A stretch of 64,000 bases of DNA from Escherichia coli. Its GTDB lineage: Bacteria; Pseudomonadota; Gammaproteobacteria; Enterobacterales; Enterobacteriaceae. The stretch lies in NCBI RefSeq assembly GCF_024298765.1, contig NZ_CP101211.1; one strand, given 5' to 3'. Both the position numbers and the translations under genes were made by a program. Below, one piece after another: positions 5,539 through 22,891 of this stretch (position 1 is its first letter; each line of letters begins with the position of its first letter). The notes beneath the pieces are model-generated. The model was not told where the DNA came from. It was given only the letters and a program-made list of their open reading frames with translations, and ran no database searches.

Positions 5539-5552
5539 TTTGCAACAGTGCC
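5539..5552 (-). repeat. Isolated IS26-type 14-bp terminal repeat (IS6-family end remnant)
   Basis: Exact TTTGCAACAGTGCC; the adjacent inner sequence resembles but does not match IS26. Confidence 0.4.
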
Positions 5553-5802: not shown

Positions 5803-5866
5803 GTCAGGATAAACAACAATACCCAGTGCTTCGAGAATCAGTTCTTGCTGCCAGGCTGCAATTTTG
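5803..5866 (-). pseudogene. qnrS1: qnrS1 3' fragment (last 20 codons plus stop)
   Basis: Minus-strand translation KIAAWQQELILEALGIVVYPD* continues the 5' fragment at 8397-8994 across the 8-bp duplication. Confidence 0.85.
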
Positions 5867-6686
5867 GGCACTGTTGCAAAGTTAGCGATGAGGCAGCCTT
5901 TTGTCTTATTCAAAGGCCTTACATTTCAAAAACTCTGCTTACCAGGCGCATTTCGCCCAGGGGATCACCATAATAAAATGCTGAGGCCTGGCCTTTGCGT
6001 AGTGCACGCATCACCTCAATACCTTTGATGGTGGCGTAAGCCGTCTTCATGGATTTAAATCCCAGCGTGGCGCCGATTATCCGTTTCAGTTTGCCATGAT
6101 CGCATTCAATCACGTTGTTCCGGTACTTAATCTGTCGGTGTTCAACGTCAGACGGGCACCGGCCTTCGCGTTTGAGCAGAGCAAGCGCGCGACCATAGGC
6201 GGGCGCTTTATCCGTGTTGATGAATCGCGGGATCTGCCACTTCTTCACGTTGTTGAGGATTTTACCCAGAAACCGGTATGCAGCTTTGCTGTTACGACGG
6301 GAGGAGAGATAAAAATCGACAGTGCGGCCCCGGCTGTCGACGGCCCGGTACAGATACGCCCAGCGGCCATTGACCTTCACGTAGGTTTCATCCATGTGCC
6401 ACGGGCAAAGATCGGAAGGGTTACGCCAGTACCAGCGCAGCCGTTTTTCCATTTCAGGCGCATAACGCTGAACCCAGCGGTAAATCGTGGAGTGATCGAC
6501 ATTCACTCCGCGTTCAGCCAGCATCTCCTGCAGCTCACGGTAACTGATGCCGTATTTGCAGTACCAGCGTACGGCCCACAGAATGATGTCACGCTGAAAA
6601 TGCCGGCCTTTGAATGGGTTCATGTGCAGCTCCATCAGCAAAAGGGGATGATAAGTTTATCACCACCGACTATTTGCAACAGTGCC
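5867..6686 (-). mobile_element. IS26 (820 bp, complete)
   Basis: 14-bp terminal repeats at both ends, with tnpA on the minus strand. Confidence 0.95.
5919..6641 (-). CDS. tnpA: IS26 transposase
   Basis: Identical translation to the other IS26 tnpA copies. Confidence 0.95.
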   Translation of the reverse strand: MLMELHMNPFKGRHFQRDIILWAVRWYCKYGISYRELQEMLAERGVNVDHSTIYRWVQRYAPEMEKRLRWYWRNPSDLCPWHMDETYVKVNGRWAYLYRAVDSRGRTVDFYLSSRRNSKAAYRFLGKILNNVKKWQIPRFINTDKAPAYGRALALLKREGRCPSDVEHRQIKYRNNVIECDHGKLKRIIGATLGFKSMKTAYATIKGIEVMRALRKGQASAFYYGDPLGEMRLVSRVFEM

Positions 6687-6754
6687 CGCTTAAAAATAAT
6701 AAAAGCAGACTTGACCTGATAGTTTGGCTGTGAGCAATTATGTGCTTAGTGCAT

Positions 6755-6825
6755 CTAACTTTGTTTTAGGGCGACTGCCCTGCTGCGTAACATCGTTGCT
6801 GCTCCATAACATCAAACATCGACCC
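6755..6825 (-). other. attI1 recombination site of a class 1 integron, apparently with no cassette
   Basis: 5'-conserved segment ...GTCGCCCTAAAACAAAGTTAGAT followed on the cassette strand by what I recall as the start of the qacE cassette, cut by IS26 at 6686; boundaries approximate. Confidence 0.6.
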
Positions 6826-6894
6826 ACGGCGTAACGCGCTTGCTGCTTGGATGCCCGAGGCATAGACTGTACAAAAAAACAGTCATAACAAGCC

Positions 6895-7576
6895 ATGAAA
6901 ACCGCCACTGCGCCGTTACCACCGCTGCGTTCGGTCAAGGTTCTGGACCAGTTGCGTGAGCGCATACGCTACTTGCATTACAGTTTACGAACCGAACAGG
7001 CTTATGTCCACTGGGTTCGTGCCTTCATCCGTTTCCACGGTGTGCGTCACCCGGCAACCTTGGGCAGCAGCGAAGTCGAGGCATTTCTGTCCTGGCTGGC
7101 GAACGAGCGCAAGGTTTCGGTCTCCACGCATCGTCAGGCATTGGCGGCCTTGCTGTTCTTCTACGGCAAGGTGCTGTGCACGGATCTGCCCTGGCTTCAG
7201 GAGATCGGAAGACCTCGGCCGTCGCGGCGCTTGCCGGTGGTGCTGACCCCGGATGAAGTGGTTCGCATCCTCGGTTTTCTGGAAGGCGAGCATCGTTTGT
7301 TCGCCCAGCTTCTGTATGGAACGGGCATGCGGATCAGTGAGGGTTTGCAACTGCGGGTCAAGGATCTGGATTTCGATCACGGCACGATCATCGTGCGGGA
7401 GGGCAAGGGCTCCAAGGATCGGGCCTTGATGTTACCCGAGAGCTTGGCACCCAGCCTGCGCGAGCAGCTGTCGCGTGCACGGGCATGGTGGCTGAAGGAC
7501 CAGGCCGAGGGCCGCAGCGGCGTTGCGCTTCCCGACGCCCTTGAGCGGAAGTATCCGCGCGCCGGGCATTCCTGGC
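6895..7576 (+). pseudogene. intI1: Class 1 integrase gene truncated at its 3' end by IS26 (about 227 codons kept)
   Basis: Translation [44 protein letters not shown]... matches IntI1; reading frame runs into the IS26 repeat at 7577. Confidence 0.9.
6982..7010 (-). promoter_or_regulatory. Integron cassette promoter Pc, hybrid variant (-35 TGGACA, -10 TAAACT, 17-bp spacer)
   Basis: On the cassette strand: TGGACAtaagcctgttcggttcgTAAACT inside intI1. Confidence 0.7.
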
Positions 7577-8396
7577 GGCACTGTTGCAAATAGTCGGTGG
7601 TGATAAACTTATCATCCCCTTTTGCTGATGGAGCTGCACATGAACCCATTCAAAGGCCGGCATTTTCAGCGTGACATCATTCTGTGGGCCGTACGCTGGT
7701 ACTGCAAATACGGCATCAGTTACCGTGAGCTGCAGGAGATGCTGGCTGAACGCGGAGTGAATGTCGATCACTCCACGATTTACCGCTGGGTTCAGCGTTA
7801 TGCGCCTGAAATGGAAAAACGGCTGCGCTGGTACTGGCGTAACCCTTCCGATCTTTGCCCGTGGCACATGGATGAAACCTACGTGAAGGTCAATGGCCGC
7901 TGGGCGTATCTGTACCGGGCCGTCGACAGCCGGGGCCGCACTGTCGATTTTTATCTCTCCTCCCGTCGTAACAGCAAAGCTGCATACCGGTTTCTGGGTA
8001 AAATCCTCAACAACGTGAAGAAGTGGCAGATCCCGCGATTCATCAACACGGATAAAGCGCCCGCCTATGGTCGCGCGCTTGCTCTGCTCAAACGCGAAGG
8101 CCGGTGCCCGTCTGACGTTGAACACCGACAGATTAAGTACCGGAACAACGTGATTGAATGCGATCATGGCAAACTGAAACGGATAATCGGCGCCACGCTG
8201 GGATTTAAATCCATGAAGACGGCTTACGCCACCATCAAAGGTATTGAGGTGATGCGTGCACTACGCAAAGGCCAGGCCTCAGCATTTTATTATGGTGATC
8301 CCCTGGGCGAAATGCGCCTGGTAAGCAGAGTTTTTGAAATGTAAGGCCTTTGAATAAGACAAAAGGCTGCCTCATCGCTAACTTTGCAACAGTGCC
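7577..8396 (+). mobile_element. IS26 (820 bp, complete)
   Basis: 14-bp terminal repeats at 7577 and 8383-8396. Confidence 0.95.
7622..8344 (+). CDS. tnpA: IS26 transposase
   Basis: Identical translation to the other IS26 tnpA copies. Confidence 0.95.
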   Translation: MLMELHMNPFKGRHFQRDIILWAVRWYCKYGISYRELQEMLAERGVNVDHSTIYRWVQRYAPEMEKRLRWYWRNPSDLCPWHMDETYVKVNGRWAYLYRAVDSRGRTVDFYLSSRRNSKAAYRFLGKILNNVKKWQIPRFINTDKAPAYGRALALLKREGRCPSDVEHRQIKYRNNVIECDHGKLKRIIGATLGFKSMKTAYATIKGIEVMRALRKGQASAFYYGDPLGEMRLVSRVFEM

Positions 8397-8994
8397 CAAT
8401 TTTGATACCTGATGTATCGACTTTGCGGGGATCTAAACCGTCGAGTTCGGCGTGGCATAAATTGGCACCCTGTAGGCTAAATTGCCCCCAGACATCTTCG
8501 GAAAAAACACCTCGACTTAAGTCTGACTCTTTCAGTGATGCACCCGCTAGGTTCGTTCCTATCCAGCGATTTTCAAACAACTCACATTTTTCTAAACAAA
8601 CCCTCTCCATATTGGCATAGGAAAGATTACATCCAGAAATAAATGCTGAGCAAAAGTACATACGATTACTCACTTGATGGGCAAAGTTTGTTCGGGAAAA
8701 GTTGGCACCTTTTAAATCACACGCACGGAACTCTATACCGTAGCAATTGGCATTACTGAAGTTTGCCATCGCAAGTTGGCATTGTTGGAAACTTGCATCA
8801 CGAAGATCTGCGACATCAAAGTGGCAGCCTTCGATATCACCCTGTTCAATGAACTTGCAGTTGACGAATGTCGTATCACGCAAGTTAGCACGTCGAAAGT
8901 CGCTGCGAATGAATGTGCAAGCGGTGAAGGTGAGATCACTTAAGTCTTTATGTGAAAAGTTGTGGTGCCGATATGTATGATTGTAGGTTTCCAT
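8397..8994 (-). pseudogene. qnrS1: qnrS1 5' fragment (first about 199 codons), interrupted
   Basis: METYNHTYRHHNFSHKDLSDLTFTACTFIRSDF... pentapeptide-repeat protein matching QnrS1; the supplied ORF tail is read-through into the IS26 repeat. Confidence 0.9.
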
Positions 8995-13371: not shown

Positions 13372-14251
13372 GGCTCTGTTGCAAAAATCGTGAAGCTTGA
13401 GCATGCTTGGCGGAGATTGGACGGACGGAACGATGACGGATTTCAAGTGGCGCCATTTCCAGGGTGATGTGATCCTGTGGGCGGTGCGCTGGTATTGTCG
13501 CTATCCGATCAGCTATCGCGACCTTGAGGAAATGCTGGCGGAACGCGGCATTTCGGTCGACCATACGACGATCTATCGCTGGGTCCAGTGCTACGCCCCG
13601 GAGATGGAGAAGCGGCTGCGCTGGTTCTGGCGGCGTGGCTTTGATCCGAGCTGGCGCCTGGATGAAACCTACGTCAAGGTGCGGGGCAAGTGGACCTACC
13701 TGTACCGGGCAGTCGACAAGCGGGGCGACACGATCGATTTCTACCTGTCGCCGACCCGCAGCGCCAAGGCAGCGAAGCGGTTCCTGGGCAAGGCCCTGCG
13801 AGGCCTGAAGCACTGGGAAAAGCCTGCCACGCTCAATACCGACAAAGCGCCGAGCTATGGTGCAGCGATCACCGAATTGAAGCGCGAAGGAAAGCTGGAC
13901 CGGGAGACGGCCCACCGGCAGGTGAAGTATCTCAATAACGTGATCGAGGCCGATCACGGAAAGCTCAAGATACTGATCAAGCCGGTGCGCGGTTTCAAAT
14001 CGATCCCCACGGCCTATGCCACGATCAAGGGATTCGAAGTCATGCGAGCCCTGCGCAAAGGACAGGCTCGCCCCTGGTGCCTGCAGCCCGGCATCAGGGG
14101 CGAGGTGCGCCTTGTGGAGAGAGCTTTTGGCATTGGGCCCTCGGCGCTGACGGAGGCCATGGGCATGCTCAACCACCATTTCGCAGCAGCCGCCTGATCG
14201 GCGCAGAGCGACAGCCTACCTCTGACTGCCGCCAATCTTTGCAACAGAGCC
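13372..14251 (+). mobile_element. IS6100 (880 bp, complete)
   Basis: Terminal repeats GGCTCTGTTGCAAA at 13372 and at 14238-14251. Confidence 0.9.
13397..14197 (+). CDS. tnpA: IS6100 transposase (true start may be the Met at 13433)
   Basis: ...[39 protein letters not shown]..., an IS6-family transposase. Confidence 0.9.
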   Translation: MSMLGGDWTDGTMTDFKWRHFQGDVILWAVRWYCRYPISYRDLEEMLAERGISVDHTTIYRWVQCYAPEMEKRLRWFWRRGFDPSWRLDETYVKVRGKWTYLYRAVDKRGDTIDFYLSPTRSAKAAKRFLGKALRGLKHWEKPATLNTDKAPSYGAAITELKREGKLDRETAHRQVKYLNNVIEADHGKLKILIKPVRGFKSIPTAYATIKGFEVMRALRKGQARPWCLQPGIRGEVRLVERAFGIGPSALTEAMGMLNHHFAAAA

Positions 14252-14689
14252 CGCCGTGCTAGTCTGCTCGGTGATGGTGGAGTGAAGCCAACCCGCAATC
14301 GGGTTATGAATCTGCATCGCGATTCGCAATCAGCTGTCTCTTGAGCATGTCGAACTCCTGCGATGTTATCTCGCCGTGCTCGTGCTGCTACACCAACTTG
14401 TCCAACTCATCCGCCACACCGCTCCCCACCACCTGCGATGGCCAGGTTGTTTGCTGGGCGCATTGGCGGAGTATCGTCTCGACCCGGGACACCCACACCG
14501 GCACAACCTTACGGGAGTGATTCACTGTCAAAGAATCGGCCCGGTGCTCTGACGCAAGTATCGGGATGGTCACCATTTGTAAGCCGTAGACCTGAGTGGT
14601 GATCAAGACTTCGATACCACCGACCGTACCGGTACTAATCGACGACGGTCGTGTTCGTCGCCTGCCGCAGGGACTCTGCACACCTCCGT

Positions 14690-15274
14690 TTACGCATGTG
14701 CCTGGAGGAGTTGGAAATCGTCGTGTTCGGGAAACATTAAACACAGGATGGCAGCGATCTGAGCCAGCACATGATCAGCTAGCTCACCATCCGGATCGAC
14801 GGCCCACTGCATCGTCGCGCCAGCGATGACCGAGTGCAGGAGCAACTCAGCTGCCGCAGGAGCACCTGGGGGCAGTCGCTTGCGGATCCCCTCCACCACC
14901 GCGCGGTTCCGCTGGATCGCAAGCGTGCGTAGCTCCGGCACCTGGAGCTCGTACCAGGAGATGAGATAGTTCACCGAGAAGTCGTTGCGAGTGTTCATGC
15001 TCCGAACGAGCACCTGCAAAAATTCCCAGAGCCCTTGCGGCCCTGCGCCTATCGGTATCGCATTCAGGTAATGCCGCACCTGCTCGACGCCGCGCTCCAT
15101 CATCCTCACCAGCAGCGTATCGCGGTTGGTGAAGCGCTGGATTAACGCTGCGCGGGAGAGCCCCACCTCCTTTGCTACTCCGCTGAGCGTGAACTCTATG
15201 GGACCGCAACGCTTCAGCACTACGGTGGCGGCCTCGAGTACCTCGTCATCGGACTTGAGCTTGGGGCGGGGCAT
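14690..15274 (-). CDS. mphR(A): TetR-family repressor MphR(A)
   Basis: Identical to the 75-659 copy. Confidence 0.9.
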   Translation of the reverse strand: MPRPKLKSDDEVLEAATVVLKRCGPIEFTLSGVAKEVGLSRAALIQRFTNRDTLLVRMMERGVEQVRHYLNAIPIGAGPQGLWEFLQVLVRSMNTRNDFSVNYLISWYELQVPELRTLAIQRNRAVVEGIRKRLPPGAPAAAELLLHSVIAGATMQWAVDPDGELADHVLAQIAAILCLMFPEHDDFQLLQAHA

Positions 15275-16512
15275 CAGTGTTCACCTTCTGTATGGGTTGG
15301 GGCGGAGGCTGTGGCTGCCGCCGCCATTGTAGCAAATTGAAGACGGAGCGAGAGTAGAGCCACGAGCCCCGCAAACACGGCCGATACAACGAGGCCAGGG
15401 AGCGGACCAGCAAGGTCGACAAACGCGCCGGCCGCAAGCATAACCATGGGCGAGGCTGACAGCATCACCGCCGAGACCGTGCCGAGTACCCGGCCGAGAA
15501 GTTCTGGCGGCGTGCGGTTGTAGATGGCAGCGTTGAGAATGGGAGAGACTGAGCCGGTCAGCAGTCCCACGAGCGCGCCCAACAACATCAGCACCGGCAC
15601 GCCTGGCAACTGTGAAAGCAGAAGCGAGCCCACCGCAGAGCCACAAAATGCCACCGCCAGCCAGTTCTGCGCTGATATCCGGGCGCCGACCGACGCATGA
15701 ATGGCAATGCCAAGGAGACCACCAGCCCCCATCATTGAGGAGAACAGCCCGAGCTCTGCTACTTGGCGTCCTGCATCTACAAACAGCGCAGGCATGATGA
15801 CGCTGCCGTTGGCGCCAACGATGCCCACGAAGATCATCACTATACCAAAGAGAGGGCGCAGCAGGGGTTCGCTCCAGAGAAAAGCGACGCCGGCGCGCAT
15901 GGAGAGAGTCGCCGTCGTGGTCATCGTCCGAGCGGCACGCGCGGGAAGCACCCACGCGCCGAGCAGACCTGCAAGGACGGAGCAGAACGCCGTCAGCCCG
16001 AGCGTTGGCGCAGCGCCAAGCAGGCCGATTGCGGCCCCCCCAAGGGCCGGGCCACCTAGAATCGCGACGTTCCCGATCACCGCTTTCAGTGACGAGACGC
16101 GCTCAACGGAGAGCCCGGCGACGTGGCCGAGTTTGGGCAGCTCACTGTCCTGCGCGGCCATACCGGGTGCGTCGAACGCGGCACCGAGCACCACGCAAGC
16201 GATCAGCCCAGTGTTCGAGAGGGCGCCAACGGCATCGAGCAGTGGGATGCTCGCCATGGCCACGCCGCCCACCACACCCGAGATCAATGCGACGGGCGCG
16301 CGCCCGAACCGATCGACGAGGCCACCACCAACCCACGCGCCGATGATGGTCGCGATGACGCTGCTAGCGGCCGTGGCGCCCGCCCAGGCCGCGCTCTTTG
16401 TATGAGACAGGACGAACCATGGAAGCGCGAGGGCCGCCACCGCGTTGCCGATCCGGAAGAGAAAGGTCGCCGCGAACAGCGTCGCGAGCGGGCTATATCG
16501 ACGTTCGCTCAT
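15274..16512 (-). CDS. mrx: Mrx, MFS-type membrane protein of the mph(A) operon
   Basis: 412-aa hydrophobic ORF between mph(A) and mphR(A) with overlapping stop and start codons. Confidence 0.85.
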   Translation of the reverse strand: MSERRYSPLATLFAATFLFRIGNAVAALALPWFVLSHTKSAAWAGATAASSVIATIIGAWVGGGLVDRFGRAPVALISGVVGGVAMASIPLLDAVGALSNTGLIACVVLGAAFDAPGMAAQDSELPKLGHVAGLSVERVSSLKAVIGNVAILGGPALGGAAIGLLGAAPTLGLTAFCSVLAGLLGAWVLPARAARTMTTTATLSMRAGVAFLWSEPLLRPLFGIVMIFVGIVGANGSVIMPALFVDAGRQVAELGLFSSMMGAGGLLGIAIHASVGARISAQNWLAVAFCGSAVGSLLLSQLPGVPVLMLLGALVGLLTGSVSPILNAAIYNRTPPELLGRVLGTVSAVMLSASPMVMLAAGAFVDLAGPLPGLVVSAVFAGLVALLSLRLQFATMAAAATASAPTHTEGEH

Positions 16513-17414
16513 TCCGCTGCGGCGAGCTGCGCCTTCGCCGCAGCGAGGTACTCTTCGTTACCCGAGTCGAGGGCGAAGAGTGCGTAGGTGACCGCCCCGA
16601 ACGCAAGGCGCTCCGCGATGTGGTGGGCGAGCCGCGGCCACACCCGGCCACCGGCCGCTTCATACGTGAGGAGGAGCTTCGCGAGCCCCTCTTCACCAAA
16701 GACCATAAGGTGCGCGGCCATGTCGATGGCAGGGTCATCAACGCGGGCCTCGCTCCAGTCGATCATCCCGCTGACGCGCTCCGTGTTGTCGATGAGCACA
16801 TGGCCCACGTAGAGATCGCCATGCACCACCACGGAGAAATCTGGCCACGACGAATCGTCGTCGAGCCAGCGCTGCCACCGGTGGAGGCGCTTGTCGTTCA
16901 CCACGAACTCGCGTCGGACGCGGTCAACGTCGTCGGCCACCTTCTGACGGGCCTGCGTCGGTGTACGGATGAGCATCCCCGCATCCACGGCGGCGGAAAT
17001 GGGGACGGCATGCAGGGCGGCGAGCGCGGTCGCGAAGCTCTCCGCGAAGACCTCCGAGTCCTGCGGCACGACCCAGTCGGGCGTGGACGAACCAGGCTGG
17101 ATGACCATCGCAGTCGAGTCTTCGAGCATGGGATAGGCAACGAGCTCGGCGTTGGCCACGCGCCAGTCCGGCACCGCGAACGGCAGGCGATTCTTGAGCA
17201 TTGCCAGCACCCGCGCCTCTGGTTCGACCTTCGCGCTTACCTCGGCTCGGCGCGGGATGCGCAGCACCCACCGACGTCCATCGTCGACGGTGGCGATCAC
17301 GATCCTATAGTCGAGCCCAAGCTCATTGACAGTCAGCGGGCCATGGAGCTTGAGCCCATGTCGGGCTGCAAGTGCGTACAGTTGGGAGGTATCGGCGGTC
17401 GTGACTACGGTCAT
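16509..17414 (-). CDS. mph(A): Macrolide 2'-phosphotransferase Mph(A)
   Basis: 301-aa ORF MTVVTTADTSQLYALAARHGLKLHG...HGDLYVGHVLID..., an APH-like kinase fold. Confidence 0.9.
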   Translation of the reverse strand: MTVVTTADTSQLYALAARHGLKLHGPLTVNELGLDYRIVIATVDDGRRWVLRIPRRAEVSAKVEPEARVLAMLKNRLPFAVPDWRVANAELVAYPMLEDSTAMVIQPGSSTPDWVVPQDSEVFAESFATALAALHAVPISAAVDAGMLIRTPTQARQKVADDVDRVRREFVVNDKRLHRWQRWLDDDSSWPDFSVVVHGDLYVGHVLIDNTERVSGMIDWSEARVDDPAIDMAAHLMVFGEEGLAKLLLTYEAAGGRVWPRLAHHIAERLAFGAVTYALFALDSGNEEYLAAAKAQLAAAE

Positions 17415-17446
17415 GATTCACTCCTGAGGGCTTGACGGGTTTAGCC

Positions 17447-17480
17447 ACCTAAATGTAACAGTCACGTCGGTTATATTCAA
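17447..17480 (-). promoter_or_regulatory. mph(A) promoter and MphR(A) operator region (pseudo-palindrome)
   Basis: AATATAACCGACGTGACTGTTACATT pseudo-palindrome directly upstream of mph(A); limits approximate. Confidence 0.45.
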
Positions 17481-17483
17481 TCC

Positions 17484-18303
17484 GGCACTGTTGCAAAGTT
17501 AGCGATGAGGCAGCCTTTTGTCTTATTCAAAGGCCTTACATTTCAAAAACTCTGCTTACCAGGCGCATTTCGCCCAGGGGATCACCATAATAAAATGCTG
17601 AGGCCTGGCCTTTGCGTAGTGCACGCATCACCTCAATACCTTTGATGGTGGCGTAAGCCGTCTTCATGGATTTAAATCCCAGCGTGGCGCCGATTATCCG
17701 TTTCAGTTTGCCATGATCGCATTCAATCACGTTGTTCCGGTACTTAATCTGTCGGTGTTCAACGTCAGACGGGCACCGGCCTTCGCGTTTGAGCAGAGCA
17801 AGCGCGCGACCATAGGCGGGCGCTTTATCCGTGTTGATGAATCGCGGGATCTGCCACTTCTTCACGTTGTTGAGGATTTTACCCAGAAACCGGTATGCAG
17901 CTTTGCTGTTACGACGGGAGGAGAGATAAAAATCGACAGTGCGGCCCCGGCTGTCGACGGCCCGGTACAGATACGCCCAGCGGCCATTGACCTTCACGTA
18001 GGTTTCATCCATGTGCCACGGGCAAAGATCGGAAGGGTTACGCCAGTACCAGCGCAGCCGTTTTTCCATTTCAGGCGCATAACGCTGAACCCAGCGGTAA
18101 ATCGTGGAGTGATCGACATTCACTCCGCGTTCAGCCAGCATCTCCTGCAGCTCACGGTAACTGATGCCGTATTTGCAGTACCAGCGTACGGCCCACAGAA
18201 TGATGTCACGCTGAAAATGCCGGCCTTTGAATGGGTTCATGTGCAGCTCCATCAGCAAAAGGGGATGATAAGTTTATCACCACCGACTATTTGCAACAGT
18301 GCC
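17484..18303 (-). mobile_element. IS26 (820 bp, complete)
   Basis: 14-bp terminal repeats at both ends. Confidence 0.95.
17536..18258 (-). CDS. tnpA: IS26 transposase
   Basis: Identical translation to the other IS26 tnpA copies. Confidence 0.95.
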   Translation of the reverse strand: MLMELHMNPFKGRHFQRDIILWAVRWYCKYGISYRELQEMLAERGVNVDHSTIYRWVQRYAPEMEKRLRWYWRNPSDLCPWHMDETYVKVNGRWAYLYRAVDSRGRTVDFYLSSRRNSKAAYRFLGKILNNVKKWQIPRFINTDKAPAYGRALALLKREGRCPSDVEHRQIKYRNNVIECDHGKLKRIIGATLGFKSMKTAYATIKGIEVMRALRKGQASAFYYGDPLGEMRLVSRVFEM

Positions 18304-18596
18304 AGAGCGAGGCCCATTGACGCCACAACGTAGGCGAGGCCACCTCCCAGTAGAACGGGGCGGCGCCCCAGTCGGTCCGATAGCGGTCCAAACAAGAGCT
18401 GACCGGCACCAATCATGACCAAGTACGTTGTCAGCGTAAGCTGAATTGTGCTCGCTGTCGTACCAAGCGCGTTTGGCATAAACGGCACTGCTGGCAAGTA
18501 CATGTCCATGCCGAGTGATGCCAATAAATCGAACGGTGATAACAACAACACCGTGGCGGCAAGGGAGTACCGCCAACTAAAGTTTTTTGAGCGCAC
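18304..18596 (-). pseudogene. cmlA: cmlA chloramphenicol exporter gene, only the first about 97 codons (GTG start), cut by IS26
   Basis: VRSKNFSWRYSLAATVLLLSPFDLLASLGMDMYLPAVPFMPNALG... matches the CmlA N-terminus. Confidence 0.8.
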
Positions 18597-18916
18597 GAAA
18601 CCATCTCCTTGAACAAAGGATTTGGCGGCGCTCCCGTAGAGCAAAAGGATTCATGAGAACGCCGCAACAACCGAAAAATGAAGGTTGCTGCGGCTTACTT
18701 GTCTGCGTTCTTGGAAGTGCTCATCTGCTGACTATCTCATGATTGAATTTGAATCGTAACAACTTTCAAGCAACTCTGCGAGGAGCCTTATTGTGCGCCC
18801 AACGCCGCCATAAACGGCGACAGGGTGGCGCGCCTATTGCGCATAAAATGGCGAAGCCATGCGCAACAGGCGCGGAATCTCTGGCGTCCGGTTTGATGGC
18901 TTTGTTATGCAAAGGA

Positions 18917-19369
18917 CTAGTCTTCAATGACGTGTAAACCACGGCGCTTTAAGTCCTCTAACGAATCCAACATTCCCCTTATTAATTCAACAGGATGCCC
19001 CTCCCAGTCTTCAACAACGCCAACAATTCTCAAGGGTTCGCAGGTTCTATAGGACTGTGTTGGATTACCGGGAAATTTTTTGTTCGTAAGATTCGGATCG
19101 TCTTCGAACGGTCCTGTTGGCTCAACTATGTATATGTAGCCGCGACCCTCGAGGCCAGACAGTGACATAGCAAGTTCAGCTCCCCAAACTGCTGGCTCCA
19201 TCAAGGCTGAAAAGTAGATGTGCTTAAGAATACGACCGTCCTCGAAATGAGAGATGAACCCTGTGGTTAGCAAGTCACCAATCGCCAAATTGGCTTTGGT
19301 TCCATGATAGAACGGTCCTTGCACCTGCTTGTAATTATCATGAGAGATGGGAATCCAATCTTTTACCAT
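18917..19369 (-). CDS. arr: Rifampin ADP-ribosyltransferase Arr (arr-2 or arr-3 group)
   Basis: 150 aa from MVKDWIPISHDNYKQVQGPFYHGTKANL...; the supplied ORF extends upstream into the attC. Confidence 0.8.
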   Translation of the reverse strand: MVKDWIPISHDNYKQVQGPFYHGTKANLAIGDLLTTGFISHFEDGRILKHIYFSALMEPAVWGAELAMSLSGLEGRGYIYIVEPTGPFEDDPNLTNKKFPGNPTQSYRTCEPLRIVGVVEDWEGHPVELIRGMLDSLEDLKRRGLHVIED

Positions 19370-19399
19370 TTTAAGACCCTTAATTGTTGGGATTTGGCT

Positions 19400-19479
19400 G
19401 CATAACGTCGCTATCAATCGCGGAAAAGGCGTAGTGCGCGAAGCGAACGAAGCTTTTTGCCGTCGATTGCATAGCTTTG
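19400..19479 (-). other. attC of the dfrA cassette (approximate)
   Basis: Imperfectly palindromic stretch between the dfrA stop and arr, ending in a GTTATGC core. Confidence 0.4.
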
Positions 19480-19962
19480 TTAACCCTTTTTCCAAATTTG
19501 ATAGCAATAGTTAATGTTTGAAGTAAAGTGTTGCTCAAAAACAACTTCGAAGGTATTTGGAATACTCGGGAAGAAAACATCCCCCTCTGGCTCGATGTCG
19601 ATCGTCGATAAGTGGAGCGTAGAGGCCATGGGTAATGTTTCTCGGTAAATTTCTCCGCCACCAGACACTATAACGTGACCGGTGAATTCAGCTAGCCTGT
19701 CCATGGCCTCTTCGATTGACTGAAATACAACTACATTGTCATCATTTGATGTCCAACCTGAGCGGGTAACGACCGCGTATTTCCTATTGGGGAGTGCGCC
19801 CATAGATTCAAACGTCTTGCGACCCACCAGAAGCCACTGATTGTAGGTCAATGCTTTAAAAAGTAGCTGCTCCCCTTTCGCGGACCAGGGTATGTCTGGA
19901 CCGCAACCAATCACGCCGTTTTTCGCTTTCGCAGCCATCAATGATACTTTCAAGGTTCTCAT
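19480..19962 (-). CDS. dfrA14: Trimethoprim-resistant dihydrofolate reductase DfrA (dfrA5/dfrA14 group)
   Basis: 160-aa [58 protein letters not shown]...; first cassette after attI1. The allele is a best guess from the dfrA-arr-cmlA order. Confidence 0.7.
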
Positions 19963-19967
19963 CCTGG

Positions 19968-20040
19968 GTTAACTTTGTTTTAGGGCGACTGCCCTGCTGC
20001 GTAACATCGTTGCTGCTCCATAACATCAAACATCGACCCA
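19968..20040 (-). other. attI1 (second copy) with the GTTAACC cassette junction
   Basis: Same 5'-conserved segment as 6755-6825 but joined to the dfrA cassette. Confidence 0.6.
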
Positions 20041-20108
20041 CGGCGTAACGCGCTTGCTGCTTGGATGCCCGAGGCATAGACTGTACAAAAAAACAGTCAT
20101 AACAAGCC

Positions 20109-20553
20109 ATGAAAACCGCCACTGCGCCGTTACCACCGCTGCGTTCGGTCAAGGTTCTGGACCAGTTGCGTGAGCGCATACGCTACTTGCATTACAGTTT
20201 ACGAACCGAACAGGCTTATGTCCACTGGGTTCGTGCCTTCATCCGTTTCCACGGTGTGCGTCACCCGGCAACCTTGGGCAGCAGCGAAGTCGAGGCATTT
20301 CTGTCCTGGCTGGCGAACGAGCGCAAGGTTTCGGTCTCCACGCATCGTCAGGCATTGGCGGCCTTGCTGTTCTTCTACGGCAAGGTGCTGTGCACGGATC
20401 TGCCCTGGCTTCAGGAGATCGGAAGACCTCGGCCGTCGCGGCGCTTGCCGGTGGTGCTGACCCCGGATGAAGTGGTTCGCATCCTCGGTTTTCTGGAAGG
20501 CGAGCATCGTTTGTTCGCCCAGCTTCTGTATGGAACGGGCATGCGGATCAGTG
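20109..20553 (+). pseudogene. intI1: intI1 truncated after about 148 codons by IS26
   Basis: Same N-terminus as the 6895 copy; reading frame enters the IS26 repeat at 20554. Confidence 0.9.
20196..20224 (-). promoter_or_regulatory. Pc cassette promoter, hybrid variant (TGGACA / TAAACT)
   Basis: Identical to 6982-7010; drives dfrA-arr. Confidence 0.7.
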
Positions 20554-21373
20554 GGCACTGTTGCAAAGTTAGCGATGAGGCAGCCTTTTGTCTTATTCAA
20601 AGGCCTTACATTTCAAAAACTCTGCTTACCAGGCGCATTTCGCCCAGGGGATCACCATAATAAAATGCTGAGGCCTGGCCTTTGCGTAGTGCACGCATCA
20701 CCTCAATACCTTTGATGGTGGCGTAAGCCGTCTTCATGGATTTAAATCCCAGCGTGGCGCCGATTATCCGTTTCAGTTTGCCATGATCGCATTCAATCAC
20801 GTTGTTCCGGTACTTAATCTGTCGGTGTTCAACGTCAGACGGGCACCGGCCTTCGCGTTTGAGCAGAGCAAGCGCGCGACCATAGGCGGGCGCTTTATCC
20901 GTGTTGATGAATCGCGGGATCTGCCACTTCTTCACGTTGTTGAGGATTTTACCCAGAAACCGGTATGCAGCTTTGCTGTTACGACGGGAGGAGAGATAAA
21001 AATCGACAGTGCGGCCCCGGCTGTCGACGGCCCGGTACAGATACGCCCAGCGGCCATTGACCTTCACGTAGGTTTCATCCATGTGCCACGGGCAAAGATC
21101 GGAAGGGTTACGCCAGTACCAGCGCAGCCGTTTTTCCATTTCAGGCGCATAACGCTGAACCCAGCGGTAAATCGTGGAGTGATCGACATTCACTCCGCGT
21201 TCAGCCAGCATCTCCTGCAGCTCACGGTAACTGATGCCGTATTTGCAGTACCAGCGTACGGCCCACAGAATGATGTCACGCTGAAAATGCCGGCCTTTGA
21301 ATGGGTTCATGTGCAGCTCCATCAGCAAAAGGGGATGATAAGTTTATCACCACCGACTATTTGCAACAGTGCC
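20554..21373 (-). mobile_element. IS26 (820 bp, complete); right edge of the resistance region
   Basis: 14-bp terminal repeats at both ends. Confidence 0.95.
20606..21328 (-). CDS. tnpA: IS26 transposase
   Basis: Identical translation to the other IS26 tnpA copies. Confidence 0.95.
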
Positions 21374-21517
21374 ACGCAAAGACGTAATGAGCAGTGTATC
21401 CCCTGCCACAATACCCTCTTCAGGGATGCTGTCAGTGGACGTCCAGTACTGACCCGCCAGCAAAGAATGAAATCGCTCTAAACGGTCAATGCTATTTTTG
21501 CTGACCAGGTCACCCAT
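21374..21517 (-). pseudogene. Backbone gene of unknown function cut after 48 codons by IS26
   Basis: Ribosome-binding site then ATG at 21517; MGDLVSKNSIDRLERFHSLLAGQYWTSTDSIPEEGIVAGDTLLITSLR runs straight into the IS26 repeat. Confidence 0.5.
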
Positions 21518-21767
21518 ATACTTTTCCTTCCAGATTCGTGTGTTAGGTGAATCATACCAGATTGCCCTTGCCGTCTAATAACGCAGAAAACTGTGAATCC
21601 AAAATTCCTTAAATTCAAACCTGTCCAATATAAAAGATGGCTCTTTTTCTTATCCAGTGTTAAGCGATAATGCTCAATTTTATTTCATTATTGTCAGAAT
21701 CAAAATAATCTGAAAATAAAAAAGGCTTCAGAATTGAAGCCTCTATATTATACAACGTGAATGTATT

Positions 21768-22124
21768 TTATTTATCTTTCACCGGGTTCATTTCCCAGTA
21801 TCTTTCACGTACGTTTTCTTGGCAATGGTCCGCTCGCTCCGGCGTGTCCCTTTTACGAGTAGCAAATGCTTCAATTACGGCATTCAAGTCTTTTTCTTTG
21901 ATTTTAGATCCAACAGGCAAGTTTTCTTCAAACTCAGTCCTTACCAGTTCTTTCGTTTTTTTATAATCGGTTTCACTTTGGATTTCAGGTTTTAAACAAA
22001 TATCGGCAACCATCACATCTGATTTGCCCGGGATCGGTTTTTTCCCGTTTTCAGATGCAAGGACCGCAGAGGAGGTAAAGGCGACAGACAGAGTTGCACA
22101 TAACAGAAGGTATTTTAATTTCAT
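21768..22124 (-). CDS. Hypothetical secreted protein (signal peptide)
   Basis: MKLKYLLLCATLSVAFTSSAVLA... signal-like N-terminus; 118 aa. Confidence 0.5.
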   Translation of the reverse strand: MKLKYLLLCATLSVAFTSSAVLASENGKKPIPGKSDVMVADICLKPEIQSETDYKKTKELVRTEFEENLPVGSKIKEKDLNAVIEAFATRKRDTPERADHCQENVRERYWEMNPVKDK

Positions 22125-22273
22125 GACTCACTCCATGATTATCAATGATGGTTGCTCAGACACATCATTTATACCATGCCTGTCACCGAATACGAGATCC
22201 CCATATTTTGGCTTTAAATATTATCCAATAGGGTTTCATACACCTGGCTTCTGAAAGCAAGGTTCAAGGAGCT

Positions 22274-22891
22274 TCAGGGGGAAATCAGATTGTTGTCGAC
22301 CCAGTACTTGTGCAAACCTACCACCCAATTCCTGGAAATGGACGAAAGTTCATGCGCCAGTTCACGACAGCATTCAGGCGTAAAAATACGTATGGGTCCT
22401 GAAGTACCGATATCAACAGACATGATAAACTCCAGAATGTTGCCATGGCATAGGTTGTTTCTCAGCCTGACAATTTCTGCTTCAGGTGTTCTCCCGGCTG
22501 CTACCTTAACCAACATATCCTGCTCGGCTGGAAATGAAAGTAATTCTACCGGCACCCCTTCCTGCTTGGCCTTTCTCAGTAAGGCATTACTCATTACGGA
22601 GATACCCTCCAAGTCCACCAGCTCAGGAGCTGCATGCTGATCGTTAACTGTTGGTTTCAGCATCAGCGACTTCAACGTAACCATGAGTGATGTTTCAATC
22701 CCGTTCAGGAAGCTCGTACAGGCCGGTATCCATAGTTCGTGATGCAACGCCTCGGTTGCTTGTTTAAAGAACCAGTCAATCACGGGGACAGTGTGATAAT
22801 CATAATAGTGATTTATCTCGCTGAATCTTGACATATAAGCATCGTACTCAGCCTGGTCTTCAGGAGATAAAAAATTTGGTGGGAGGGGCAT
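22274..22891 (-). CDS. Hypothetical protein
   Basis: 205-aa ORF divergent from umuD. Confidence 0.45.
   Translation of the reverse strand: MPLPPNFLSPEDQAEYDAYMSRFSEINHYYDYHTVPVIDWFFKQATEALHHELWIPACTSFLNGIETSLMVTLKSLMLKPTVNDQHAAPELVDLEGISVMSNALLRKAKQEGVPVELLSFPAEQDMLVKVAAGRTPEAEIVRLRNNLCHGNILEFIMSVDIGTSGPIRIFTPECCRELAHELSSISRNWVVGLHKYWVDNNLISP

Follow-up and report, generated by a model that had tools for sequence, protein, structure and literature searches.

An IS26-bounded remnant of a class 1 integron carrying dfrA14 and arr-2 in Escherichia coli

The 2,250-bp segment at positions 18304-20553, the exact stretch between two IS26 copies, is very probably a class 1 integron remnant that acts as a trimethoprim and rifampicin resistance expression unit and can be moved by IS26. 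It lies within a 64,000-nucleotide stretch of Escherichia coli DNA, referred to here as the window. Judged by its sequence, the locus is a known and ordinary module that has already been described. Consistent with the preliminary description, profile matches give the cassette order dfrA-arr-cmlA, and both ends have been cut by IS26, with 820-bp copies adjoining the remnants of intI1 and cmlA (Table 1). The ancestor would have been a class 1 integron with the array dfrA14-arr-2-cmlA5-(blaOXA-10-aadA1), on which two independent IS26 events would have acted, one removing the distal two-thirds of intI1 and the other everything past codon 97 of cmlA5.

Table 1. Features of the integron remnant and of the IS26 copies that bound it
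Feature	Position	Strand	Evidence
Left IS26, complete, 820 bp	17484..18303	-	Terminal repeats; identity to other IS26 copies; NCBIfam transpos_IS6, 275 bits
cmlA5 cassette remnant, first 499 bp of cassette	18304..18802	-	efflux_CmlA profile; tblastn; coordinates
arr-2 cassette, 603 bp	18803..19405	-	rifampin_ARR; attC fold; boundaries
dfrA14 cassette, 567 bp	19406..19972	-	trim_DfrA1_like; attC fold; boundaries
attI1 site, intact	19947..20019	-	Rfam RF02912 'AAC_AAD_leader / attI site'
P2, inactive (TTGTTA, 14-bp spacer, TACAGT; GGG insertion absent)	20080..20105	-	Pattern match
intI1 remnant, codons 1-148 + 1 nt of 337	20109..20553	+	NCBIfam PRK15417, positions 1-148/337
PcH1 cassette promoter, TGGACA-N17-TAAACT	20196..20224 (20224->20196)	-	Found by three independent routes
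Right IS26, complete, 820 bp, oriented as left copy	20554..21373	-	Terminal repeats; identity to left copy

The two flanking IS26 copies are identical (0 differences over 820 bp each) and in direct orientation, with tnp26 on the minus strand in both (18240->17536 in the left copy). Their terminal repeats, GGCACTGTTGCAAA, are located at 17484/18303 and 20554/21373, and this repeat is matched 13 times in the window, where chance would give 0.09 matches. The IRL end of the left copy adjoins the cmlA remnant, and the right copy connects the intI1 remnant with an IncHI2 backbone that, from 21374 onward, is colinear with those of pXJW9B277-HI2-N and pMTY18780-1. IS26 directly adjoins cmlA nt 293 and intI1 nt 445, with no integron sequence past either, and both the 3' conserved segment (qacEΔ1-sul1) and a tni module with IRi and IRt ends are absent at the locus. 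In class 1 integrons IRi lies past the 3' end of intI1, that is, within the part deleted here. The window also contains an additional IS26 composite within qnrS1.

The intI1 remnant scores 344 bits against PRK15417, below the full-length cut-off of 435; the locus thus lacks a complete 337-aa tyrosine recombinase, the catalytic C-terminal half being gone, and PGAP annotates intI1 on identical DNA as a pseudogene without its C-terminus. A second intI1 sequence at 6895-7576 was considered as the missing half and rejected, as it is another 5' remnant and not the complementary 3' part. An IS26 inversion splitting the integron inside the window was also rejected, the missing halves of intI1 and cmlA both being absent from the window.

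The intI1 stub still carries the cassette promoter. The hybrid Pc promoter proposed earlier could be assigned to PcH1, whose sequence is the one that PMC2791841 defines in its Table 1; it has no TGN extended -10 motif, the triplet immediately upstream being TCG, and the IntI1 residues R32 and H39 encoded here are those that go with PcW or PcH1 (PMC2791841). An active P2 requires a 17-bp spacer (PMC2791841). The attI1 match scores 64.2 bits (gathering score 56), covers model positions 1-75/75 and extends over the first bases of the dfrA14 cassette; the crossover GTT is at 19973->19971 and the core AAAACAAAGTTA at 19981->19970. An Rfam scan of 17000-22000 returned no RNA element besides this match.

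Each of the two complete cassettes closes with a GTTRRRY core and has an attC region that folds into a hairpin. The dfrA14 attC terminates in GTTATGC (19406->19400) and its bottom strand folds at -19.9 kcal/mol (z = -3.2); the arr-2 attC terminates in GTTGGGC (18803->18797), in a region that folds with z = -4.6. The dfrA14 coding sequence runs 19953->19480 (157 aa, PGAP start), or encodes 160 aa from an ATG at 19962, and the interval 19480-19962 scores 300 bits against trim_DfrA1_like (cut-off 250). The arr-2 coding sequence (19369->18917, 150 aa) scores 223 bits against rifampin_ARR (cut-off 130). The alleles dfrA14 and arr-2 named in the preliminary description proved correct: on DNA identical over 2,250 bp, AMRFinderPlus calls both genes, each at 100% to its reference protein, and PGAP gives the same names (DfrA14, WP_004201280.1; Arr-2, WP_000237816.1). 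PcH1, of intermediate strength, would read from within the intI1 stub across attI1 into dfrA14 first and arr-2 second, so that trimethoprim and rifampicin resistance would be expected. Cassette movement by an integrase of the locus itself would be impossible; an IntI1 provided in trans could nevertheless use attI1 and both attC sites, all of which are intact.

The third cassette retains nt 1-293 of cmlA, from a GTG at 18596 down to 18304, corresponding to positions 1-97/419 of the efflux_CmlA profile, and tblastn with full CmlA5 aligns residues 1-98 at 100%. With 97 codons and 2 nt of 419 left of cmlA, and 148 of 337 codons left of intI1, neither gene can work, as had been proposed. The nine-codon cmlA leader MSTSKNADK is intact (18724->18695), and the open frame runs 16 codons into IS26 to a stop at 18254-18252, giving 114 aa. 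The predicted product, 98 CmlA residues (about 3 of 12 membrane helices) followed by 16 encoded by IS26, cannot export chloramphenicol, and PGAP records the gene on the identical pMTY18780-1 DNA as an MFS transporter pseudogene without its C-terminus. An intact cmlA elsewhere, which would have offered another source of chloramphenicol resistance, was not found in the window by tblastn with full CmlA5, and the window holds no floR either. Related IncHI2 plasmids are reported to carry floR (PMC9396133, PMC9241639); such a gene outside the window would account for chloramphenicol resistance if the isolate had any. The proposed allele cmlA5 is supported by context, but the surviving fragment cannot itself identify the allele, because RGI labels the identical fragment cmlA6 at 100%. 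The name cmlA5 derives from context only, in that all 2,250 bp match arrays with full cmlA5 at 100%.

On its sequence organization the locus is an IS26 pseudo-compound transposon, because the remnant is flanked on each side by an intact IS26 and the two copies are in direct orientation, and its Tn402-type mobility has been lost. Pseudo-compound transposons and translocatable units of IS26 are reportedly the subject of a model by Harmer, Moran and Hall. The preliminary description of the integron as immobile as a unit remains valid for integron or Tn402-type movement but overlooks this direct pair of intact copies. Transfer or loss of the unit could occur by way of a 3,070-bp translocatable unit, made up of the 2,250 bp and a single 820-bp IS26, or by homologous recombination between the IS26 copies. 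No Tn number was found for it.

Many sequenced plasmids annotated with DfrA14 and Arr-2 match the 2,250 bp at 100% identity, as do plasmids whose third gene is full cmlA5. For recurrence of the junctions the analysis used records that align to a 6-kb query in a single piece, along with direct blastn of retrieved loci. At least five complete IncHI2 plasmids of E. coli, pMTY18780-1 among them, align without interruption to the 6-kb arrangement mph(A)-IS26-array-IS26-IncHI2 backbone. Counts from 80-bp junction queries (78 records for cmlA, 610 for intI1) were set aside as upper bounds, given that they join separate 40-bp pieces lying within ~540 bp; the figure of 610 is clearly inflated, its top rows being two-piece joins with E = 8e-13. 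The majority of occurrences come from a single IncHI2 plasmid lineage that shares the junction with the backbone on the right, and much of the recurrence would therefore reflect vertical inheritance rather than movement.

With six or more copies or fragments of IS26, the window presents a classic cause of misassembly, and the truncated ends could in principle be false joins across collapsed repeats, the real integron being complete. This can practically be dismissed: at least 15 complete E. coli genomes, sequenced independently, carry both IS26 junctions within a single unbroken alignment, one of these genomes having been checked base by base, the junctions also appear in PLSDB among plasmids of Salmonella, E. 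coli, Shigella and Enterobacter and in the literature (PMC10100706), and the rest of intI1 and cmlA is, as noted, missing from the window. A fixed relic, in which dfrA14 and arr-2 are expressed but the unit is immobile and has spread with one clonal IncHI2 lineage only, is unlikely but deserves more weight. It would account for the IS26-IncHI2 backbone junction common to most matches and for the absence of a target-site duplication around the module when the 8-bp flanks of all four complete IS26 copies were compared (TTCAATCC, AGAGCGAG, GATCAGTG, ACGCAAAG). However, the missing duplication is uninformative, because a translocatable unit inserted next to an existing IS26 makes none, and the direct pair of intact copies is the very configuration that forms such units. 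Moreover, the neighbours vary among records on both sides: on the left, mph(A) in the window and pMTY18780-1 is replaced by ISEcp1-blaCTX-M-55 in pXJW9B277, and the right neighbour differs in three records. Such changes beside IS26 can also come from homologous recombination without transposase. Finally, a 3,070-bp segment of exactly this content, given as "dfrA14/arr-2/ΔcmlA5 … IntI1 truncated by IS26", was reported in 2023 as gained within resistance regions of the S. Kentucky ST198 chromosome (PMC10100706), a gain established by comparing related resistance regions and not an observed transposition.

A further alternative, which appears very improbable, gives the cmlA stub an active role: transcripts started at Pc and at the cmlA promoter, together with translation of the 114-aa CmlA'-IS26 fusion, would feed into the left tnp26 and make the transposase level drug-responsive. 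The cassettes and the left tnp26 are indeed on the same strand, the leader peptide has been preserved, and the TGA that stops the fusion frame overlaps, as TGATG, an in-frame ATG that precedes the tnp26 ATG at 18240 by 12 nt. But this arrangement is pure sequence coincidence, as any frame-matched read-in to IRL makes the same overlap; the literature searched offers no support, and terminator-like stems are present inside the stub at 18575-18549, although such stems were no more frequent in the scan than chance predicts. The chance is slimmer still that the fusion frame is attenuator-controlled, in which case chloramphenicol could raise Tnp26 in cis and hence the mobility or amplification of the trimethoprim/rifampicin module.

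With the remnant read as an IS26-movable trimethoprim/rifampicin unit, the 'cmlA' called here by annotation tools (by RGI as cmlA6 at 100%) should not be taken as phenicol resistance, whereas dfrA14 and arr-2 may be counted as presumably expressed. The module illustrates how IS26 trims integrons to small portable two-gene resistance units, which ride epidemic IncHI2 plasmids together with blaCTX-M-55, qnrS1 and mph(A) in E. coli and Salmonella. The locus leaves current understanding unchanged.

Comparison with the full array dfrA14-arr-2-cmlA5-blaOXA-10-aadA1 shows 100% identity over attI1, the dfrA14 and arr-2 cassettes and the beginning of the cmlA5 cassette, and likewise over the Pc-bearing region 20197-20553. 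Relative to that array, the locus is without intI1 codons 149-337, cmlA5 codons 98-419, blaOXA-10, aadA1 and the 3' conserved segment, and therefore without integrase activity and without phenicol, beta-lactam and streptomycin determinants. The plasmid pCTXM55_025985 has a longer form that includes full cmlA5 and an OXA-10-like remnant, and forms with blaOXA-10 and aadA1 are found in several E. coli records. With IS26 pseudo-compound transposons the locus shares two intact, direct IS26 copies around a resistance segment and the lack of a flanking duplication; for this unit, movement is predicted from sequence. The closest relatives are pMTY18780-1_IncHI2 (AP023198) and pXJW9B277-HI2-N (CP068042), in which the module is 100% identical, with the same junctions to both IS26 copies, and the S. 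Kentucky ST198 regions (PMC10100706), which carry the same IS26-ΔintI1-dfrA14-arr-2-ΔcmlA5-IS26 module. In pMTY18780-1 even the neighbours on either side, mph(A) and the IncHI2 backbone, are those of the window. Compared with the known IncHI2 modules, the wider resistance region alone differs, the window having the IS26 composite in qnrS1 and ISEcp1-blaCTX-M-55 not adjacent to the module.

The segment 18304-20553 is a dfrA14-arr-2 class 1 integron remnant that fills exactly the 2,250 bp between two complete IS26 copies, identical in sequence and in the same orientation (see table). The dfrA-arr-cmlA array noticed in the preliminary description therefore coincides with the inter-IS26 interval, and its account of intI1 and cmlA as truncated by IS26 holds, with 445 nt and 293 nt left, respectively, and IS26 abutting each gene. 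A scan of the window for the IS26 terminal repeat GGCACTGTTGCAAA returned 13 matches with at most one mismatch, where chance would give 0.09.

Features of the module, its surroundings and the qnrS1 composite
Feature	Position	Strand	Details
mph(A)-mrx(A)-mphR(A)-IS6100	17414 down to about 13372		left of module
Left IS26, complete	17484-18303	- (tnp26)	820 bp
Stub ORF end in IS26	18232-18303	-	16 IS26 codons; TGA 18254-18252; tnp26 ATG 18240
cmlA nt 1-293 (stub)	GTG start 18596, end 18304	-	NCBIfam efflux_CmlA, positions 1-97 of 419 only
cmlA leader	18724->18695	-	MSTSKNADK, nine codons; within cmlA remnant
cmlA cassette remnant	18802->18304	-	first 499 bp
arr-2 cassette	19405->18803	-	603 bp; CDS 19369->18917; NCBIfam rifampin_ARR, 223 bits (cut-off 130)
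dfrA14 cassette	19972->19406	-	567 bp; CDS end 19480; NCBIfam trim_DfrA1_like, 300 bits (cut-off 250)
attI1, intact	20019->19947	-	Rfam RF02912
P2, inactive form	20105->20080	-	14-bp spacer, no GGG insertion
ΔintI1	from 20109	+	445 nt = 148 codons + 1 nt, then IS26
Pc promoter	20224->20196	-	TGGACA-17 bp-TAAACT; inside intI1 stub
Right IS26, complete	20554-21373	- (tnp26)	820 bp
Composite IS26, first	5867-6686		orientation opposite to second
aadA cassette start	6687-6755		69 bp; inside composite, with attI1
intI1 codons 1-227 with PcH1	6895-7576		inside composite
Composite IS26, second	7577-8396		orientation opposite to first
qnrS1, interrupted	8994->8397, resumes 5866->5808	-

In a profile search, the ΔintI1 match to the integron-integrase model PRK15417 covers positions 1-148 of 337 and scores below the full-length cut-off. 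The Pc promoter inside ΔintI1 was found both by our own pattern search and by a generic promoter scan, and its sequence identifies it as the 'hybrid 1' variant PcH1 under the definitions of Jové et al. 2010 (PMC2791841, Table 1), in line with the hybrid Pc proposed earlier. TCG directly precedes the -10 hexamer of PcH1, which therefore carries no TGN extension, and the IntI1 encoded by the stub has R32 and H39, the residues tabulated for IntI1 of PcW and PcH1 (PMC2791841). The RF02912 ('AAC_AAD_leader / attI site') match at 19947-20019 spans the full model length (64.2 bits, gathering score 56) and simply marks attI1. Rfam describes this family as a 'putative aminoglycoside riboswitch / attI site'; here the next cassette is dfrA14, with no aac or aad gene.

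Both complete cassettes end in GTTRRRY cores, and each attC region folds as a long hairpin with imperfect pairing (-19.9 kcal/mol, z = -3.2, for the dfrA14 bottom strand; -35.9 kcal/mol, z = -4.6, for arr-2). Many PLSDB plasmids match all 2,250 bp at 100% identity, and in those records AMRFinderPlus calls dfrA14 and arr-2, each at 100% identity. On the identical stretch of the IncHI2 plasmid pMTY18780-1_IncHI2, RefSeq/PGAP annotates DfrA14 (WP_004201280.1) and Arr-2 (WP_000237816.1), together with an MFS-transporter pseudogene and an intI1 pseudogene, both 'missing C-terminus'. These calls in identical DNA confirm the two alleles proposed earlier. The third proposed allele, cmlA5, is favoured by the 100% identity of the module to full cmlA5 arrays; however, the fragment by itself is no basis for an allele, because its 98 surviving residues are 100% identical to CmlA5 (tblastn) and yet RGI labels it cmlA6, also at 100%. 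The name cmlA5 thus derives from the array context. The RGI/CARD-based PLSDB annotation labels the non-functional 5' fragment 18304-18648 as 'cmlA6, 100% identity', which readily leads to phenicol resistance being wrongly entered in resistome tables.

Upstream of the two intact cassettes lie an intact PcH1 and attI1; neither the integrase gene nor cmlA is complete. From what is known of integron expression, PcH1 would transcribe dfrA14 as the first cassette and then arr-2 as the second, with predicted resistance to trimethoprim and rifampicin, respectively. The CmlA stub ORF encodes 114 aa (98 residues plus 16 from IS26), which would be unable to build a 12-helix MFS pump, and therefore no chloramphenicol resistance is expected from 18304-20553. 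A tblastn search with full CmlA5 found no intact cmlA elsewhere in the 64-kb window, nor any other cmlA or floR-like gene, and there is no cat gene among the annotated regions colinear with the window. The phenotype predicted in the preliminary description agrees with this gene content.

Misassembly at IS26 as the origin of the junctions is excluded in practice, the same junctions recurring in many independently finished genomes. A 6-kb query (16400-22400, mph(A)-IS26-module-IS26-backbone) compared with complete E. coli genomes aligns as one unbroken piece at ~100% identity (at most 1-2 mismatches) in five complete E. coli plasmids (TUM18780, TUM18530, R2, XJ6.1 and strain 11); one unbroken alignment crosses both module IS26 junctions in at least 15 genomes among the matches listed, and at least 80% of the query is covered in 29 genomes. 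A split of the integron by inversion within the window was rejected, the complementary intI1 and cmlA5 halves being absent from it. Transcription from Pc and the cmlA promoter, along with stub translation, might also feed the left tnp26 and couple chloramphenicol-responsive expression to the transposase: both promoters point into tnp26 in the sense direction, and the stop codon of the stub ORF overlaps, as TGATG, an in-frame ATG located 12 nt before the tnp26 start codon. The support is one of sequence geometry, however, and such coupling is unlikely.

The earlier statement that the integron is immobile as a unit stands in the Tn402 sense, because the module has lost both the integrase and the Tn402-type ends, but two intact direct IS26 copies give it the configuration of a pseudo-compound transposon. 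In the Harmer-Hall model, such a directly oriented pair can release a translocatable unit consisting of one IS26 and the adjoining segment, here predicted at 820 + 2,250 = 3,070 bp. A segment of exactly this size is reported as an acquisition in S. Kentucky (PMC10100706). The neighbours also vary: on the left, mph(A) in the window and pMTY18780-1 is replaced by ISEcp1-blaCTX-M-55 in pXJW9B277, and the right neighbour differs in three E. coli records. Comparison of the IS26 flanks revealed no 8-bp duplication around the module. Its absence is expected when a translocatable unit inserts beside a pre-existing IS26 and equally from IS26-IS26 homologous recombination; both fit the data, which cannot separate them. 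The IncHI2 backbone junction is common to most occurrences, and vertical spread of one plasmid lineage thus explains most of the recurrence. On structure, promoter, alleles and predicted phenotype the preliminary description is correct; only its statement on mobility and the basis for cmlA5 call for qualification.

The more unusual features of the window fall outside 18304-20553, chief among them the interruption of qnrS1 (region 5808-8994) by a 2,530-bp composite (5867-8396) whose two IS26 copies are inverted relative to each other. The outer flanks of the composite carry the 8-bp direct duplication CAATTTTG, and the uninterrupted site is present in pXJW9B277 and pMTY18780-1. An inverted IS26 pair bracketed by a direct duplication resembles the product of true composite transposition, an unusual event for this element. 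The insertion removes the C-terminal 19 residues of QnrS1, which may consequently be inactive. In p13P484A-2 (NZ_CP019282.1) the same 2,530 bp lie between Tn3-family tnpA and blaTEM remnants, with no duplication; no PLSDB record and no complete E. coli record contains the qnrS1 insertion as a single piece. Close to the qnrS1 3' flank, at 5539-5552, is an orphan 14-bp IS26 terminal repeat that the reference plasmids also have. The side of the macrolide module at 14355-15348, comprising mphR(A), the 3' end of mrx(A) and flanking sequence, recurs at 1-994 as its reverse complement, as deduced from the alignment of both copies to one part of pMTY18780-1; this suggests either a second mph(A) operon copy past the left window end or an IS26/IS6100-mediated inverted duplication. 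A complete IS6100 of 880 bp, with terminal repeats GGCTCTGTTGCAAA, spans 13372-14251; a partial copy from 1098 is cut by a truncated IS26 at 1419-2200 (782 bp, without one end; region 1098-2200).

The module is already known and ordinary in IncHI2 multiresistance regions. The IncHI2 backbone of pXJW9B277-HI2-N, with its umuDC, trh/tra, mobI/mobH and traD genes, runs colinear with positions 21374-64000 (99.98%), and the module occurs in IncHI2-sized PLSDB plasmids of Salmonella, E. coli, Shigella and Enterobacter. PMC10100706 reports the segment as a gain in resistance regions on the chromosome of S. Kentucky ST198 isolates and compares these regions with pMTY18780-1. The resistance genes listed for sister IncHI2 plasmids include arr-2 and dfrA14 but not cmlA, and their phenicol resistance is assigned to floR elsewhere on the plasmid (PMC9396133, PMC9241639). 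In pCTXM55_025985 the identical 2,250 bp belong to a longer array, in which cmlA5 is full-length (100% by AMRFinder) and an OXA-10-like remnant is present, and several E. coli records carry the longer array dfrA14-arr-2-cmlA5-blaOXA-10-aadA1.
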